Source: Desulfovibrio sp.
Lineage (GTDB): Bacteria > Desulfobacterota > Desulfovibrionia > Desulfovibrionales > Desulfovibrionaceae
DNA length: 64,000 nucleotides
NCBI RefSeq assembly: GCF_034006445.1
Contig: NZ_JAVESS010000010.1
Coordinates: 28,933-92,932 of the forward strand
Direction: 5' to 3'
In this document: positions 2,412 through 63,919 of the stretch, in pieces
How positions within the stretch are numbered: position 1 is the first letter of the stretch
Layout of the letters: each line of letters opens with the position of its first letter
Translations under genes and position numbers: made by a program
The notes under the pieces: model-generated
Databases searched by the model: none
The model's input: only the letters and a program-made list of their open reading frames with translations
Told to the model about the DNA's origin: nothing

Positions 2412-2568
2412 TGGGGAAACGCTGATTTATTTTGTTTAGCGGTGTTGCTTCACTTTTTTTGAAACAGTCGAGGACGGAAGAGTCCACTCCTGCTTCAAAA
2501 AAAGAGCGCGCCTTGCCAAACGAAATACCAGCGCGTTTCCAGGAAGCTCTTTAATCAATGCTTCCATA
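2412..2568. mobile_element. MITE-like element, family A copy 1 (157 bp)
   Basis: Near-identical to 6621-6775 (core GAGGACGGAAGAGTCCACTCCTGCTTCAAAAAA); imperfect terminal inverted repeats TGGGGAAACGCTGATT...AATCAATGCTTCCATA. Confidence 0.8.
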
Positions 2569-2721: not shown

Positions 2722-3975
2722 ATGTCCCGTATAAAGAATCTGCGTGAAGATGCGCTGGCCATGCACAAGAATTTTCAGGGCAAGATTGAAGTGCGCGTAA
2801 AGGTTCCCGTTCGTGATGCCGATGATCTCACTCTTGCGTATTCGCCCGGCGTGGCGGAACCCTGCATGGAAATCAACCGTAATCCTGAAATGCTGGACGT
2901 GTACACCAACCACGGCAATTTTGTCTGCGTGGTGTCCAACGGCACAGCGGTGTTGGGCCTGGGCGACATTGGCCCCGGCGCCGCCATGCCGGTGATGGAA
3001 GGTAAAAGTCTGCTGTTCAAGACCTTTGGCGATGTGGATGCTTTTCCCATCTGCGTTGACACCAAGGACACAGCCAAGATCGTCGAGCTTGTGGAACTGA
3101 TGGCCCCCACCTTTGGCGGCGTGAACCTTGAAGACATCAAAGCACCGCAATGCTTTATCATTGAGGATGCCCTCAAGAAAAACGGCGTTTTCAAGGGCCC
3201 CATCTTCCACGACGACCAGCACGGCACCGCCGTGGTTACTCTGGCCGGGCTTATCAATGCTCTCAAGGTCGTCAACAAGAAGCTGGAAGACGTTACTGTG
3301 GTCACCAGCGGCGCGGGTGCGGCCGGTATTGCCATCATCAAACTGCTCATGGCCATGGGCCTCAAGAACGTCATCATGTGCGACACGCGCGGGGCCATCT
3401 ACGAAGGCCGCGCCGAAGGCATGAATCCGTATAAGGAAGAAATAGCCCGGCGCACCAATCCGCAGAAGGTCAAGGGCGGTCTGGCCGAGGCTATCAAGGG
3501 GGCGGACGTGTTTATCGGCGTTTCCGCACCCAACACCCTTACTGAAGACATGATCCGCAGCATGGCCAAGGACCCCATAGTCTTTGCCCAGGCCAACCCC
3601 ATCCCCGAAATCTGGCCTATCCAGCGCGCGCTGGACGCCGGTGCGCGGGTGGTGTCCACGGGGCGTTCGGACTGCCCCAACCAGATTAACAATGTGCTGG
3701 CCTTTCCCGGCATCTTCCGTGGCGCTCTGGACGTGGCCGCCACGGACATCAATGACGCCATGAAGATAGCCGCAGCCTACGCCATTGCAGAACTGGTCAC
3801 GGCTGACGAACTGCGGCCCGACTATATCATACCTTCAACCCTTAATCCCGATGTGGCCCCGGCCGTGGCTGCCGCCACTGCCCGCGCCGCCATAGAAAGC
3901 GGCATTGCCCGCAACCCTGTGGATCCGGCCATTGTGGGGAAAAACCTCAAGAACAGACTTGCTAACCGCAAGTAA
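2722..3975 (+). CDS. NAD(P)-dependent malic enzyme
   Basis: AYSPGVA, NGTAVLGLGDIG, NLEDIKAP, FHDDQHGT, PNQINNVLAFPGIFRG motifs; RBS AGGAG. Confidence 0.93.
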   Translation: MSRIKNLREDALAMHKNFQGKIEVRVKVPVRDADDLTLAYSPGVAEPCMEINRNPEMLDVYTNHGNFVCVVSNGTAVLGLGDIGPGAAMPVMEGKSLLFKTFGDVDAFPICVDTKDTAKIVELVELMAPTFGGVNLEDIKAPQCFIIEDALKKNGVFKGPIFHDDQHGTAVVTLAGLINALKVVNKKLEDVTVVTSGAGAAGIAIIKLLMAMGLKNVIMCDTRGAIYEGRAEGMNPYKEEIARRTNPQKVKGGLAEAIKGADVFIGVSAPNTLTEDMIRSMAKDPIVFAQANPIPEIWPIQRALDAGARVVSTGRSDCPNQINNVLAFPGIFRGALDVAATDINDAMKIAAAYAIAELVTADELRPDYIIPSTLNPDVAPAVAAATARAAIESGIARNPVDPAIVGKNLKNRLANRK

Positions 3976-58751: not shown

Positions 58752-61700
58752 TCAGGCCGAAACCTTTGCCGCAACTGGTATGCGTATGTCTTCCAGTGCC
58801 TGACGCAATCTGTCAAGCCCCTGCGCAAGGGGAACGTCTTTTTCCAGCGTCAGCGCAAGGCCCGCCGGGGGGTGGACGCGCGCGCCCGGCAGGGACGCGG
58901 CAAGAGCCACAATGCGCTCCGGCTGCACGGCCGTCTGGCCGTCCGGCCAGGTCAGGCGCACGGATTCGCGGCGCACCTCGGCCTTCTGCACCTGAAGTTC
59001 CGTAAGAAACTGCTTGAAGTCCAGCACGGCCAGGAAGTTTGCCAGCTCTTCGGGGAATGGCCCGAAACGGTCGCGGATGGACAGGGCCGTTTCTTCACGC
59101 GCGGCCCCGCCGGAAGCCGAGGTAAGGGCCTTGTAGCAGCGCAGCCGTTCGCGTCCGTCGTCAATGTACGACGCGGGAATATGCGCCGGAAGGCCCAGCG
59201 TCAGTTCCGTTTCTGTCACAATGCTTTCGGGCATGCCCTTGAGGCGGCCCACGGCTTCCTCCAGCATTTCAAGGTACAGGTCAAGGCCCACGCGGCACAT
59301 GTGCCCGGACTGTACTTCGCCCAGAATATTGCCCGCGCCGCGCAGGCGCAGGTCTTCCATGGCCACCTGAAAGCCCGCGCCCAGGTAGTCCATGTCCATA
59401 ATGATGCGCAGGCGCTCCTCGGCCACGGCAGTGAGGCGCTCGGCGTCGGGCACCACAAAAAAGGCGTATGCCTGCCTGTCGCTGCGGCCCACGCGGCCGC
59501 GCAGCTGGTACAGTTGCCCCAGGCCGAACATCTGGGCCTGATCCACCACCAGGGTGTTGGCGCGGGGAAAGTCCAGGCCGGATTCCACTATGGACGTGCA
59601 TACCAGCACATCCAGTTCGCCATGCCAGAACTTGTGCATGGTGTCTTCAAGCTCGGTTTCGGACATCTGGCCGTGGGCCATGCCCACACGGGCCGCAGGA
59701 ACAAGCCCGCGCACGTATTCCGCCACGCGCTCCAGCCCCTGCACACGGTTGTAGACCCAGAATATCTGGCCTTCACGCTCCATTTCGCGTTCCATCACCT
59801 TGCGCAGCACGTTGTCGTCCCTGCGCAGCACGGCGCTGGCCACGGGTTTGCGGTCCTGCGGCGCTGTTTCGATGATGGAAAGCTCGCGGATGCCCGACAT
59901 GGAAAGCTGCAGGGTACGCGGAATGGGCGTGGCCGTGAGCGTCAGCACATCCACGTTTTTTTTGAGGGCCTTGAGCTTTTCTTTATGGCGCACGCCAAAC
60001 CGCTGTTCTTCATCAAGAATGAGCAGGGTCAGATTGGGCAGCTTCACGTCGGTGGACAAAATGCGGTGGGTACCGATGAGGATGTCCACCTGCCCGGCGG
60101 CAGCGGCCTTGAGCACTTCTTTTTGTTTGGGGCGCGTCACAAAACGGCTGAGCAGGCCCACATTGACGGGAAAGCCCGCCAGGCGCGCCCTGAAAGTCTG
60201 GTAATGCTGTTCGGCCAGCACGGTGGTGGGGCAGAGCATGGCCACCTGCCGCCCCTCTGAGGCGGCGCGGAAGGCGGCTCGCAGGGCCACCTCTGTTTTG
60301 CCGAAGCCCACGTCGCCGCACACAAGACGATCCATGGGGCTTGACTTGTCCATATCGTCCAGCACGTCCTGGATGGCCTTGGCCTGATCCGGGGTTTCCT
60401 CAAAGCCGAAGGTGGCCTCGAATTCGTGATACAGCTCGCCGGGCGGGTCGTAGCGGAAGCCCTTGGTGACCTTGCGGTAGGCGTACATCTCCACCAGGTC
60501 GGCGGCGATTTTTTCAATGGCCTTGCGGGCTTTTTCCTTGCCGACCACCCAGGCGGCGCCGCCCAGGCGGTCAAGGGCTGGCTCCACGCCTTCCGTGCCC
60601 TTGAAGCGCTGGATAAGCCCCAGCCTGTCCGCAGGCACGTAGAGCTTGTCCTTGCCGGAATACTCCACCAGCAGAAAATCGTTGGCCGCCGCGTTGAGAT
60701 CCAGATGGTGCAGGCCCGCAAAACGCCCGATGCCGTAATCGCGGTGTACCAGAAGATCGCCGGGCTTGAGGTCGTCAAAAGTGTCCAGACCCTTGAATAC
60801 GCGGGAAGAAACCCGGGGCGTTTTTTCGGCCTTGGGGTAGAGGATGTCCTCGCCGAGCACCAGGGTGCCGTCCCAGACAAGGTCTGCGCCCGACCTGAAG
60901 GGTGAAACAAGGGCAAAAAGTCCCTTCTGTTCCGGCGCGTAGCGCAGGGCGGGCACAATGCCGTCCTGCTCGGCCAGTTTCAGAAACTTTGCCCGGCTTC
61001 TGCCTGACGAAAAACTGAGAACCACCTGGCGGCGGCTGTTGCGCCACTCCTTGAGAGCCGTGGAGAGGTGCTGCCAGGGGCGGTCTTGCGCGCCCGGCAG
61101 GGGAAAGAGGTCAGTAAAGGAGTGCAGGGGACGTTCGGCCAGGTCAAGGCCGCGCTCTTCGACGCCCATGACCAGAGGTTCGGCGTAGATACGCTGAAAG
61201 CCGTTCCAGGGCGCGGGCTGCGAGCTTTTGCGCAAGGTGAGCGTAGCGGGTTGCGGCAGGGGGGAGTCCGGGGCCTCCAGCCTTTCCTTGAGGCTCAGGC
61301 GGCCGTCGCGCAGGGCGTCGGCGCTGTCGGCCTCGCCGGGCAAGAGCCACAGACTGTCCTTGGGCAGCCAGTCTTCAATGAAACTTGTGGTTTCAAGCAC
61401 GCTGCCGGGCAAAAGTCCCAGGCCGCCGCTGTCCAGCGATTTTTTGAAGGAATAGCACTCGTTTTCGCCAATGCGGCCTTCGGCGAACATGCGGTCGCAA
61501 CGATCGCGCGCCGTTGCCAGGGCTTTGGCGTCAAGCGCCAGCGGGCTGGCGGGAAGGAGCGTCAGTTCGTCGCAGCCCTGCAGGGAGCGCTGGCTTTCAG
61601 CGTCAAAAACGCGCATCTCATCCAGGGTGTCGCCAAAAAACTCCAGGCGCACGGGCTTGGCGTAGCCAGCGGGAAAAATATCGAGGATATCACCCCGGCG

Positions 61701-62207
61701 CGCCATTTCTCCGGGCCGGGTGACCATGGTCACGCGCTCGTAGCCCCATTCCACGGCCTGATCCAGCAGCAGTTCGGGCGCGTAATCGCTGCCCTTGCGC
61801 AGGTCAAGGTTGCGTGAGGCGAAGAAATTCAGGGGCACATGACGCAGCAAAAGACTTTCAACACTGCACACGAGACAACGCGGCTGCCCGAGACCAAGGC
61901 CATACAGGGCGGCCAGGCGCGCTGCCCACGAGGCTCTGTCCTGCCGCTGGTTCAAGGCGGGCAGGGCCAGGCACGGGCTGCGCCACAGGGGTTCGGACAG
62001 GGGCTTTTCGCCCAGGGAAAGTTCCGGGGTAAAGAGCGTCAGCAGTGCGCGGGCAAGCGTATACTCTTCACGTTCGCGCGCCACCAGAACAACCGTGCGC
62101 CCACGGGTCATGGCCTCAACGGCGAGACGACAGCGCGTGGCCATACCGCTGCGCTCGATATATATCTGATTTTCCTGACTTGCCAGTACTGCGTTAAAAA
62201 TGTCCAT
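58752..62207 (-). CDS. mfd: Transcription-repair coupling factor
   Basis: RGDILDIF, VHRDYGIG, FEETPDQ, CGDVGFGKT, DEEQRFGV, LYQLRGRVGR, DLRLRGAGNILG; start 62207 or 62249. Confidence 0.96.
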   Translation of the reverse strand: MDIFNAVLASQENQIYIERSGMATRCRLAVEAMTRGRTVVLVAREREEYTLARALLTLFTPELSLGEKPLSEPLWRSPCLALPALNQRQDRASWAARLAALYGLGLGQPRCLVCSVESLLLRHVPLNFFASRNLDLRKGSDYAPELLLDQAVEWGYERVTMVTRPGEMARRGDILDIFPAGYAKPVRLEFFGDTLDEMRVFDAESQRSLQGCDELTLLPASPLALDAKALATARDRCDRMFAEGRIGENECYSFKKSLDSGGLGLLPGSVLETTSFIEDWLPKDSLWLLPGEADSADALRDGRLSLKERLEAPDSPLPQPATLTLRKSSQPAPWNGFQRIYAEPLVMGVEERGLDLAERPLHSFTDLFPLPGAQDRPWQHLSTALKEWRNSRRQVVLSFSSGRSRAKFLKLAEQDGIVPALRYAPEQKGLFALVSPFRSGADLVWDGTLVLGEDILYPKAEKTPRVSSRVFKGLDTFDDLKPGDLLVHRDYGIGRFAGLHHLDLNAAANDFLLVEYSGKDKLYVPADRLGLIQRFKGTEGVEPALDRLGGAAWVVGKEKARKAIEKIAADLVEMYAYRKVTKGFRYDPPGELYHEFEATFGFEETPDQAKAIQDVLDDMDKSSPMDRLVCGDVGFGKTEVALRAAFRAASEGRQVAMLCPTTVLAEQHYQTFRARLAGFPVNVGLLSRFVTRPKQKEVLKAAAAGQVDILIGTHRILSTDVKLPNLTLLILDEEQRFGVRHKEKLKALKKNVDVLTLTATPIPRTLQLSMSGIRELSIIETAPQDRKPVASAVLRRDDNVLRKVMEREMEREGQIFWVYNRVQGLERVAEYVRGLVPAARVGMAHGQMSETELEDTMHKFWHGELDVLVCTSIVESGLDFPRANTLVVDQAQMFGLGQLYQLRGRVGRSDRQAYAFFVVPDAERLTAVAEERLRIIMDMDYLGAGFQVAMEDLRLRGAGNILGEVQSGHMCRVGLDLYLEMLEEAVGRLKGMPESIVTETELTLGLPAHIPASYIDDGRERLRCYKALTSASGGAAREETALSIRDRFGPFPEELANFLAVLDFKQFLTELQVQKAEVRRESVRLTWPDGQTAVQPERIVALAASLPGARVHPPAGLALTLEKDVPLAQGLDRLRQALEDIRIPVAAKVSA

Positions 62208-62377
62208 TAACCCGTTCCATTGACCTGGCTGTTCTTCTTGCACGGCCATGACGCGCGCGAACGATCTGCACAAAGTTTTAAATGACGTGTTGTTATGAAG
62301 CCCTAAAAAAAGGCTGCCGTAAAGTGACAAGGGGGCGGCCCTAAAGCCGCCCCCGGTCAACCGTATCTGTCGTTTTT

Positions 62378-62698
62378 CTAGTTGGTGCCGCAGCCGCCGC
62401 CGCAGCCGGAGCAACCGCCCTCGCTCTGAGGCAGGGGCACGTTGGGCTCCACCATAAAGCCCATAGGGGTGAGGTCGATTTTCACGCCTTCAACCTGGGC
62501 CAGCAGGTCCTTGTTGATGCAGAAGGTGAAGCCGCCCTGTTCATCGCTCTGGTCCTCATCTGTGGCGGCGTCGAGGGCCAGCGCAAGGCGCGGGCCGCTG
62601 CAACCGCCGGGGGCAAGGTATATGCGGATGTCGCTTTTGTCCTTGCCTTCAAAGTAGGCTGCCAGTTCTTTTTGAGCGCTTTCGGTAAGTTCGAGCAT
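62378..62698 (-). CDS. IscA/HesB-like protein, Cys form
   Basis: IRIYLAPGGCSGPRLALALD; C-terminal CSGCGGGC. Confidence 0.88.
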   Translation of the reverse strand: MLELTESAQKELAAYFEGKDKSDIRIYLAPGGCSGPRLALALDAATDEDQSDEQGGFTFCINKDLLAQVEGVKIDLTPMGFMVEPNVPLPQSEGGCSGCGGGCGTN

Positions 62699-62789
62699 GG
62701 TTCCTCCATGATTTTTTCGGGTATTTATATATTCCGAAAAACAGGCTGAGATGCTTCATCGGCTGACGGGGAACCAGGCCCGTTTCGAT

Positions 62790-62940
62790 TGGAGCATTTA
62801 ACCTTTGAAAAAAGGTAAGTGCTCCAACGCTGCACGAAAGTGCAGCGCGCCACAGCGTGGCGTGGATTCTGCCGAAAATCGCAGTTTTCGGCAGAATGAC
62901 AACTTTGAAATGCTTCACATTTCAAAGTTGATCTGGCCTA
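62790..62940. mobile_element. MITE-like element, family C copy 3 (inverted, 151 bp)
   Basis: Reverse complement of 31188-31338 with substitutions; end TA lies in the stop codon of the selenoprotein gene. Confidence 0.82.
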
Positions 62941-63252
62941 GTGGCTTCCGCAGCTTGAGCAGCTGCTGCAACCATCGCCTTCTGAAGCAAAGGGCACGTC
63001 TGGTATGAGCGTGAACCCCATGTAAGTTAAATCAACGGAAACTCCCTTCACTTCATCAAGCAAAGACTTGTTCATGCAGAAGGTGTATCCAGCCTGTTCC
63101 TCGGTTGTATCCTGGTCATTCGGCTCGTCCAGAGCCAGAGCGAGGCGCGGGCCGCCTCAACCAGCCGAGAGGTAAATCCGAATCGGATCCTTTTTCTTGT
63201 CCGCAAAGAAGGTATCAAGCTCCTTGCGGGCAGTGTCGGTCAATTGAATCAT
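62938..63252 (-). CDS. HesB-like selenoprotein (104 aa, UGA at codon 32); absent from the ORF track
   Basis: MIQLTDTARKELDTFFADKKKDPIRIYLSAG-U-GGPRLALALDEP...GCSSCSSCGSH; TGA at 63157-63159 aligns with Cys of the adjacent paralog; RBS GGAGG; hairpin after the UGA. Confidence 0.9.
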
Positions 63253-63379
63253 GGTGTCCTCCATATTTCTGGTGCCATAGTAACTAAGGCCATGCTTCTG
63301 GCTTGTCAATTGCCGGGGGCCTTTTCTTCAATCACAAAAAGCGGTAGGGTTTTGCCAGGCAGATGCCACGGGAGGAAAC

Positions 63380-63919
63380 ATGAACACAACCCTGCTGCTT
63401 GAGCAGCACGAAATGGCACGTATGCTGGAACGCCTGGCGTCCCAGATTATGGAGCGCCACGCCAAGTGCGACCATGTCATGCTGGTCGGTATTGAACGCC
63501 GCGGCGCTGATCTCGCCCGCCGCCTGTCCGCCCTGCTTGAGGATCGCCTTGGGCATCCCGTGCTGCTGGGCACGCTGGACATAAACCTCTACCGCGACGA
63601 CTGGACAAGCCTTGAAGGCAAACCCCACATCGGGCAGTCGCGTATACCGGCCAGCGTTGACGGGCGCGTCATCATTCTTGTTGATGACGTGCTGTACACT
63701 GGGCGCACCATACGTGCCGCCCTGGAGGCCCTGTTGGACTACGGACGCCCCATGGCGGTGGAATTGCTGGCCCTCATTGACAGAGGGCGCCGCGAGCTGC
63801 CCATCCACGCGGATTATGTGGGCCGCACGGTCAATACCAGCCGCCATGAACGCGTTGACGTGCTGCTGGCTGAACGGGACGGACAGGACGCCGTACACCT
63901 GACGGCAAGTCCCGTATAG
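63380..63919 (+). CDS. pyrR: Bifunctional pyr operon regulator / uracil phosphoribosyltransferase
   Basis: LDINLYRDD, ILVDDVLYTGRTIRAAL, DRGRRELPIHADYVG. Confidence 0.95.
   Translation: MNTTLLLEQHEMARMLERLASQIMERHAKCDHVMLVGIERRGADLARRLSALLEDRLGHPVLLGTLDINLYRDDWTSLEGKPHIGQSRIPASVDGRVIILVDDVLYTGRTIRAALEALLDYGRPMAVELLALIDRGRRELPIHADYVGRTVNTSRHERVDVLLAERDGQDAVHLTASPV

Follow-up and report, generated by a model that had tools for sequence, protein, structure and literature searches.

We propose that the minus strand of the window, by which we mean the whole 64,000-nucleotide stretch of Desulfovibrio sp. DNA under analysis, contains at positions 62938-63252 an intact, functional gene encoding selenocysteine (Sec) within a 104-residue HesB/IscA-like selenoprotein. 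We consider this reading very probable. The features on which it is built, and those next to them, are the following.

62938-63252, minus strand: HesB/IscA-like selenoprotein gene (very probable), 104 codons and a TAG stop, with its ATG at 63250-63252.
63157-63159, minus strand: in-frame UGA, the proposed Sec codon 32, in a U-G-G-P motif (UxGP in the family); the plus strand reads TCA.
63258-63262, minus strand: Shine-Dalgarno sequence GGAGG, 5 nt upstream of the ATG, read directly from the DNA.
63122-63136, minus strand: probable SECIS core hairpin GGCUC-UGGAC-GAGCC, an element of the RNAfold minimum free energy (MFE) structure that is conserved in Sec forms.
62378-62698, minus strand: Cys-containing paralog of 106 aa, directly downstream of the selenoprotein gene (NF038090, 102.7 bits).
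62789-62937, no strand assigned: multi-copy, hairpin-rich repeat element of about 148 nt, between the TAG stop of the selenoprotein gene and the paralog, outside the gene.

When TGA is translated as U, the gene reads as a single frame of 104 aa. Its product, MIQLTDTARKELDTFFADKKKDPIRIYLSAG-U-GGPRLALALDEP...CSSCSSCGSH, has a Cys-rich C-terminal end, and the full 104-residue translation is MIQLTDTARKELDTFFADKKKDPIRIYLSAG-U-GGPRLALALDEPNDQDTTEEQAGYTFCMNKSLLDEVKGVSVDLTYMGFTLIPDVPFASEGDGCSSCSSCGSH, the TGA of codon 32 being the only one in frame. The ORF listing made with translation table 11 contains fragments only, one of 45 aa from the C-terminal part and one of 50 aa that stops at the TGA. A sequence-only reading of this DNA had proposed the 104-aa read-through product, colinear with the neighbouring HesB-like gene and with its UGA on the Cys of that gene. 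Re-translation reproduced its coordinates, lengths and motif comparison, and colinearity was borne out by BLASTP, which aligns the selenoprotein with the paralog at 56% identity over 89 residues (E=3e-36) and places U32 opposite the paralog Cys (SAG-U-GGPRL versus PGG-C-SGPRL). A promoter scan of window positions 62250-63450 did not find a sigma-70-like site.

We assigned the protein to a family by comparison with profile HMMs. The NCBIfam model NF038090 (IscA_HesB_Se) matches the whole selenoprotein with 90.3 bits, above its cut-off of 85. Residues 32-35 read U-G-G-P, with the U opposite a Cys both in the paralog and in 23 further homologues; UxGP is the Sec motif of HesB-like selenoproteins (PMC13188914). 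The score against TIGR01911 (HesB_rel_seleno) is 35.7 bits for a cut-off of 66.35, and the protein is thus filed under NF038090, a different subfamily from TIGR01911. The equivalog HMMs of IscA, SufA and ErpA all score far under their cut-offs (29.5 versus 58.8 for TIGR00049; 18.6 versus 150.6 for IscA), and Pfam PF01521 (Fe-S_biosyn) is borderline, with 25.2 bits for a gathering score of 26.3. The protein shares the IscA fold, yet it is no member of the IscA/SufA/ErpA equivalogs.

The fold itself was predicted with AlphaFold2 from 24 homologues. The model has a pLDDT of 85.3 and a pTM of 0.73, with disorder confined to the Cys-rich tail (residues 92-104). Its top PDB matches are IscA with a [2Fe-2S] cluster (1x0g), SufA (2d2a) and E. 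coli IscA (1s98, 1r94), and Foldseek relates it to A-type carriers with E values of 1.7e-6 to 5.7e-5 and TM scores of 0.6-0.7. On this model, the product has the fold of an A-type Fe-S carrier. When the sequences are aligned, U32 falls on the first ligand Cys of IscA/HI1723, which corresponds to Cys35 of E. coli IscA. Across the family alignment, LALALD and three C-terminal Cys (CxxCxxC) are invariant, and the Sec/Cys position is nearly so. Judged by homology, the probable role of the selenoprotein is to bind or pass on a metal, an Fe-S cluster or a chalcogen.

In order to follow the TGA codon through the family, we extracted the homologous sequences from fetched loci and obtained 34 distinct Sec-type and 23-24 Cys-type sequences. 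A TGA occupies the homologous codon in all 34 of the former, which are orthologues from many genera of Desulfovibrionaceae, while the 23-24 other homologues have Cys (TGC/TGT) at this codon. Such a recurrence of TGA at one codon in 34 distinct sequences is far beyond chance. A scan limited to a single genome for each species detected orthologues in Desulfovibrio sp. MES5 (95% amino-acid identity), D. falkowii and others, with the TGA at the same codon and conservation to the same C-terminus; some lineages have Cys instead. A homologue was present in 283 of the 301 Desulfovibrionaceae genomes searched, and a large share of the best matches contain a single TGA; very often a Cys copy lies on the same strand a few hundred bases away. 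Three members of this set (G050:C2:20959-21270, G114:C24:23488-23799 and G157:C37:35171-35479) show one TGA plus a second stop (TAG/TAA) in the matched span; they may be true pseudogenes, or alignments that overrun the natural stop.

We then compared selection on the two sides of the UGA, using five close relatives together with two more distant ones for which the estimates were finite. The dN/dS ratio is 0.10-0.22 downstream of the UGA and 0.04-0.13 upstream. These values are comparable, which indicates that the entire frame is under purifying selection, and the downstream ratio shows that the gene is no pseudogene.

Sec insertion would depend here on a candidate SECIS hairpin within the coding region, for which overlapping folds can be drawn. 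The bSECIS model, as quoted in PMC13188914, describes an apical loop of 3-9 nt, an upper stem of 4-16 bp, a spacing of 16-37 nt and an MFE of at most -7.5 kcal/mol, with a G as the first or second loop nucleotide and, as a rule, a G or U after it. The hairpin GGCUC-UGGAC-GAGCC lies at +21 to +35 after the UGA. Compared with this model, it has a 5-nt loop (UGGAC) on a stem of 5 bp, or of 6 bp with the flanking U.G pair 63121/63137. Its loop reads U-G-G-A-Y in 34 of 34 Sec forms, so that loop positions 2 and 3 are both G, and the apical loop comes 25 nt after the UGA (alignment columns 4-28). RNAfold gives -8.4 kcal/mol for the 5-bp and -8.8 kcal/mol for the 6-bp form, on the stable side of the quoted -7.5 kcal/mol. 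The hairpin thus agrees with the published bSECIS model on all counts. The RNAalifold consensus is the same hairpin. An Rfam scan of window positions 62300-63400 at E<=10 returned chance hits only, with no bacterial SECIS match.

Conservation of this hairpin is concentrated in a 17-nt island, YUGGCUCUGGAYGAGYC, that never varies among Sec forms, whereas the flanking codons for Gly, Pro, Arg, Leu and Ala are free to differ at their third positions. The stem Ala codon is GCU in 34/34 Sec forms, versus GCU in 13, GCC in 7 and GCG in 3 of the Cys forms. The Leu codon of the loop is always CUG in the 34 Sec forms and mixed in the Cys forms. The Glu codon of the stem is likewise GAG throughout the 34, while Cys forms have GAG (6), GAA (4) or other residues (13). 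As a result, the 5-bp stem is intact in every one of the 34 Sec forms but in only 2 of 23 Cys forms; in three Sec forms where Pro became Ser, it is retained by a change from G-C to G.U. An invariant hairpin offers zero compensatory covariation, and the pairing register is therefore supported by energy, by the fixed synonymous sites and by the Sec/Cys contrast. The Sec/Cys set of 34 versus 23 sequences constitutes a clean example of a SECIS element that shows up as a stretch of 17 nt in which synonymous sites are frozen.

The same region can be folded in another way. The gene would then still encode a selenoprotein, with a SECIS element made of CUCG-C-UCUG/GCUC/UGGA-CGAG and a G-led loop 21 nt after the UGA, as the sequence-only reading had drawn it. 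This register has a G first in its loop, falls within the 16-37 nt range and pairs in 85.8% of cells across 29 Sec sequences; moreover, the invariant island is common to both folds, so that conservation alone cannot separate them. However, its energy is -5.1 kcal/mol, short of the -7.5 kcal/mol of the bSECIS model, against -8.4 to -8.8 for the other fold. Two synonymous sites of its 5' arm vary and break a pair in 12/29 and 21/29 sequences (columns 18 and 21), which implies that these pairs are not under selection. Half of its eight pairs in this gene are G.U wobbles, three of them in the inner stem and the fourth in the 23 of 29 orthologues with GAU. RNAfold and RNAalifold both pick GGCUC/UGGAC/GAGCC, and the SECIS candidates of the fdhA genes resemble the GGCUCUGG arrangement. 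We thus consider this register unlikely: a SECIS-type hairpin at the right distance was correctly recognized, but the pairing first drawn for it, although it can be formed, is the weaker of two overlapping folds. The paralog indeed lacks the stem, as had been noted; the loss is, however, not due to synonymous changes alone, since GCU>GCC and CUG>CUC are accompanied by a non-synonymous replacement of Glu-Pro by Ala-Ala.

A third hairpin, GAGGCG-GCCCG-CGCCUC (63142-63158, minus strand), which RNAfold also places here, overlaps the UGA itself and was rejected as the SECIS element. It is predicted in close relatives but not conserved beyond them, with only three weak pairs left in the family consensus, and the 7 nt between the UGA and its loop fall short of the 16-37 nt range. 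It is probably a by-product of the Gly-Pro-Arg codons.

Some Cys homologues carry the preferred GGCUC-UGGAC-GAGCC stem as well. Two of them, from Desulfovibrio metagenome-assembled genomes (L040 and L041, at about 3093-3160 in each), have the motif C-C-G-P-R-L and the complete hairpin, and a third (L039) keeps 4 of its 5 pairs. From their sequences, these stem-retaining forms look like remnant SECIS elements left after a Sec-to-Cys conversion, such as has been described for another HesB-like protein (PMC1794560).

The genome was searched for the Sec-decoding machinery. The assembly (G000) consists of 44 contigs and is scored 99.99% complete. A selC gene for tRNA-Sec was detected at C23:91945-92034 (RF01852, 75.8 bits for a threshold of 47; called tRNA-SeC with anticodon (tca) by ARAGORN), selA at C39:47753-49135 (585.5 bits) and selD at C25:73778-74725 (318.9 bits), the latter with an in-frame TGA at RAAG-U-AAK. 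Three fdhA-type genes have TGA at the canonical ...ARxUH... site (ARVUH or ARTUH) and are located at C43:189621-192626, C20:193934-195967 and C41:436008-438092. These three genes and selD carry hairpins placed similarly to that of the HesB-like gene, 20-25 nt downstream of their TGA, with GG- or GGUC-type loops (GGC, GGUCU, GGUC and G-rich); one of these SECIS candidates has the string GGCUCUGG in common with the core hairpin. The resulting small selenoproteome (SelD, three FdhA, HesB-like) matches the lists for D. vulgaris and D. desulfuricans, the selenoproteomes of these two species comprising SelD, three FdhA, the HesB-like protein and others (PMC1794560).

In contrast to the other three genes, selB was not found in the 44-contig assembly by TIGR00475, PF09107 or tblastn with five SelB proteins; the matches were to other GTPases only (EF-Tu, IF-2, LepA, TypA, EF-G-like and Der). 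Elsewhere in the genus, neither selA nor selB occurs without the other (six genomes with both, six with neither), and selB is present in all eight of the nearest genomes that bear the TGA gene. The two flanks of the selB neighbourhood in MES5 map to different contigs, one to the beginning of C42 and the other to the end of C37, and each of these contig ends falls within a gene (an aminotransferase and a SulP permease). Roughly 11.5 kb between C37 and C42, including ispH and dusB, are missing from the assembly. Indeed, ispH was not found in the genome bin either, and this gene is normally indispensable for the MEP pathway.

Exact-protein look-ups led to an ENA contig that matches C42:1-2799 with 100% identity and continues past C42. 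The metagenomic contig Ga0265295_1007901 of JGI 3300028601 (L117; 12,011 nt) bridges C37 and C42: its first 127 nt are C37:68194-68320 and its last 127 nt are C42:1-127, each with 100% identity. The genes on this contig code for the rest of SulP, DusB, IspH, a CheV-like protein, SelB, a CoA-disulfide-reductase-like protein and the aminotransferase. The SelB protein has 670 aa, scores 346.2 against TIGR00475 (cut-off 242.25) and comprises GTP_EFTU, D2, the beta-barrel and both winged-helix domains. We infer that the exact 127-nt overlaps are the trace of a k=127 de Bruijn assembler between adjacent contigs; the bridging contig would thus be an adjacent contig of the same assembly that was left unbinned. 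As an observation on the bin, the omission of this one 12-kb contig deprives it of selB, ispH, dusB, the cheV-like gene and portions of two other genes.

The absence of selB is a binning gap and not a loss, and its presence is supported by the bridging-contig argument. We rejected a real loss of selB, with the TGA gene as a relic, on account of the strict selA/selB co-occurrence, the contig ends within genes, the simultaneous lack of ispH and the bridging contig. The four sel genes, whose confirmation the sequence-only reading had made the first check of its proposal, are thus accounted for, with selA, selC and selD in the genome and selB on Ga0265295_1007901. A genome devoid of Sec machinery, named there as an outcome that would speak against the gene, is not what we observed, though selB is absent from the deposited assembly itself. 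A naive test of the type 'no selB, therefore no Sec' would wrongly discard a correct finding in a 99.99%-complete bin.

These elements suggest how the gene could be decoded, Sec insertion at this UGA and SelB binding being inferred. A ribosome would reach the UGA at codon 32 while the SelB.GTP.Sec-tRNA(Sec) complex would be held on the mRNA by the GGCUC-UGGAC-GAGCC hairpin, which begins 20 nt past the UGA. Selenocysteine would then be inserted at the UGA in place of termination. The expected product would be an IscA-fold protein with Sec, as a selenolate, at the first conserved ligand Cys (Cys35 in IscA) and with a flexible, invariant CxxCxxC tail.

Alternatively, the UGA could simply terminate translation, yielding a 31-aa N-terminal peptide only and/or a separate C-terminal protein of 66-70 aa initiated at an internal start. 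Bacterial Sec insertion is never 100% efficient, and because of this incomplete efficiency some of the 31-mer is likely made. Annotation pipelines have moreover deposited truncated proteins of just this kind. Databases contain 66-70-aa C-terminal fragments that begin inside LALALDEP (P0021, P0023-P0026, P0028 and P0030), one of which (P0024, named 'hypothetical protein') occurs on 413 contigs. However, the deposited fragments start at Leu codons of the conserved LALALDEP that were called as Met. Neither half would hold the IscA fold, as a beta-hairpin of the predicted structure spans the UGA (strands 24-31 and 34-41). Both halves are also under equal purifying selection and always colinear in one frame. 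Termination as the normal fate of this mRNA is therefore highly improbable.

The fragments illustrate a wider problem, which the earlier reading had anticipated in stating that pipelines mishandle such genes. Ordinary gene finders cut the Sec gene in two, and many truncated 66-70-aa entries are public; in two further deposited proteins (P0005 and P0017) the TGA was read as W, giving Trp at the Sec position.

Least probable of all is a decaying pseudogene, that is, a duplicate of the adjacent Cys gene inactivated by a TGC>TGA nonsense mutation: the adjoining Cys paralog, the lack of selB in the deposited assembly and the splitting of the frame by gene callers would fit it, but it is at odds with the identical TGA codon in 34 distinct sequences from many genera without other stops or frameshifts, with the dN/dS of 0.10-0.22 downstream of the TGA, with a conserved hairpin specific to TGA forms, with the recovery of selB on the bridging contig and with the four other TGA-containing selenoprotein genes that are intact in the genome.

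We also considered the arrangement of the Sec gene and its Cys paralog. This tandem is conserved: among the matches listed, at least 28 genomes of Desulfovibrionaceae have such a Sec and Cys pair, and the Sec gene usually comes first. The two genes might form a selenium-responsive isoform pair, comparable to the Sec/Cys isogenes of Methanococcus, in which the Cys copy would stand in for the Sec form under selenium limitation; we regard this as a rather doubtful possibility. If it were true, the selenoprotein would have a dedicated function, for example in selenium handling or in a Se-ligated Fe-S cluster, and the repeat inserted between the Sec and Cys genes could uncouple them in this strain.

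This repeat of about 148 nt gives 206 BLAST hits in the genome, including about 70 near-full copies, and resembles a MITE/REP-type repeat. The spacer between the Sec and Cys genes measures 239 nt here versus about 92 nt in Desulfovibrio sp. MES5, where the insert is absent. The insert may act as a terminator or affect co-transcription of the two paralogs. A second, unrelated repeat family of about 155 nt is scattered in about 155 copies over the genome (85-98% identity) and is present in MES5 too; examples are window positions 2415-2565 (G000 C27:31347-31497) and L054 5056-5213. The genes that flank the pair appear ordinary. Downstream, a long ORF resembling the transcription-repair coupling factor Mfd occupies 58752-62414 on the minus strand, and a PyrR/uracil-phosphoribosyltransferase-like ORF lies upstream in divergent orientation (63380-63919, plus strand), both being named from their sequence only.

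Comparison with known systems places the gene firmly in a described family. Its SECIS candidate has in common with the bSECIS consensus and with the fdhF SECIS of E. coli that it is a coding-region stem-loop downstream of the UGA with a small, G-bearing apical loop. It differs from the fdhF element by its short stem (5-6 bp), in which no bulged U like U17 of fdhF is evident, and by a sequence that is unrelated except for the G-rich loop. IscA, SufA and ErpA (1x0g, 1s98 and 2d2a) share the fold, with Sec located here on the first cluster-ligand Cys. They contain a C-x(n)-C-G-C triad, whereas here Sec stands as the first ligand and a CxxCxxC tail replaces the CGC pair. The archaeal and clostridial HesB-like selenoproteins of TIGR01911 belong to the same superfamily and have the same UxGP motif; their archaeal members use a SECIS element in the 3'-UTR, in contrast to the bacterial, in-frame SECIS candidate of this gene. 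According to PMC11097638, the archaeal member MMJJ_08070 of Methanococcus maripaludis is confirmed by 75Se, and disruption of the Methanococcus homologue has no known phenotype.

The closest counterparts are found within Desulfovibrio. HesB-like selenoproteins, a classical selenoprotein family of prokaryotes, were reported in this genus in 2006-2007 (PMC1794560, PMC1914089): Table 3 of Zhang et al. 2006 (PMC1794560) includes them for D. vulgaris and D. desulfuricans, and DVU_1382 of D. vulgaris is named as one (PMC1914089), in agreement with the initial remark that such proteins were already known in Deltaproteobacteria. Our analysis brings little that is new for biology, as the family has figured in catalogues of Desulfovibrio selenoproteins for some twenty years, and NCBIfam provides a model devoted to it. 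The gene described here is the orthologue, in another Desulfovibrio species, of a known HesB-like selenoprotein whose biology is already known. It shares with the NF038090 family and DVU_1382 its size, the UxGP motif at the first ligand Cys position, the genus and family of its host and the Sec-decoding trait, and it differs from them in nothing of substance, the local distinction being the repeat of about 148 nt just after its stop codon.
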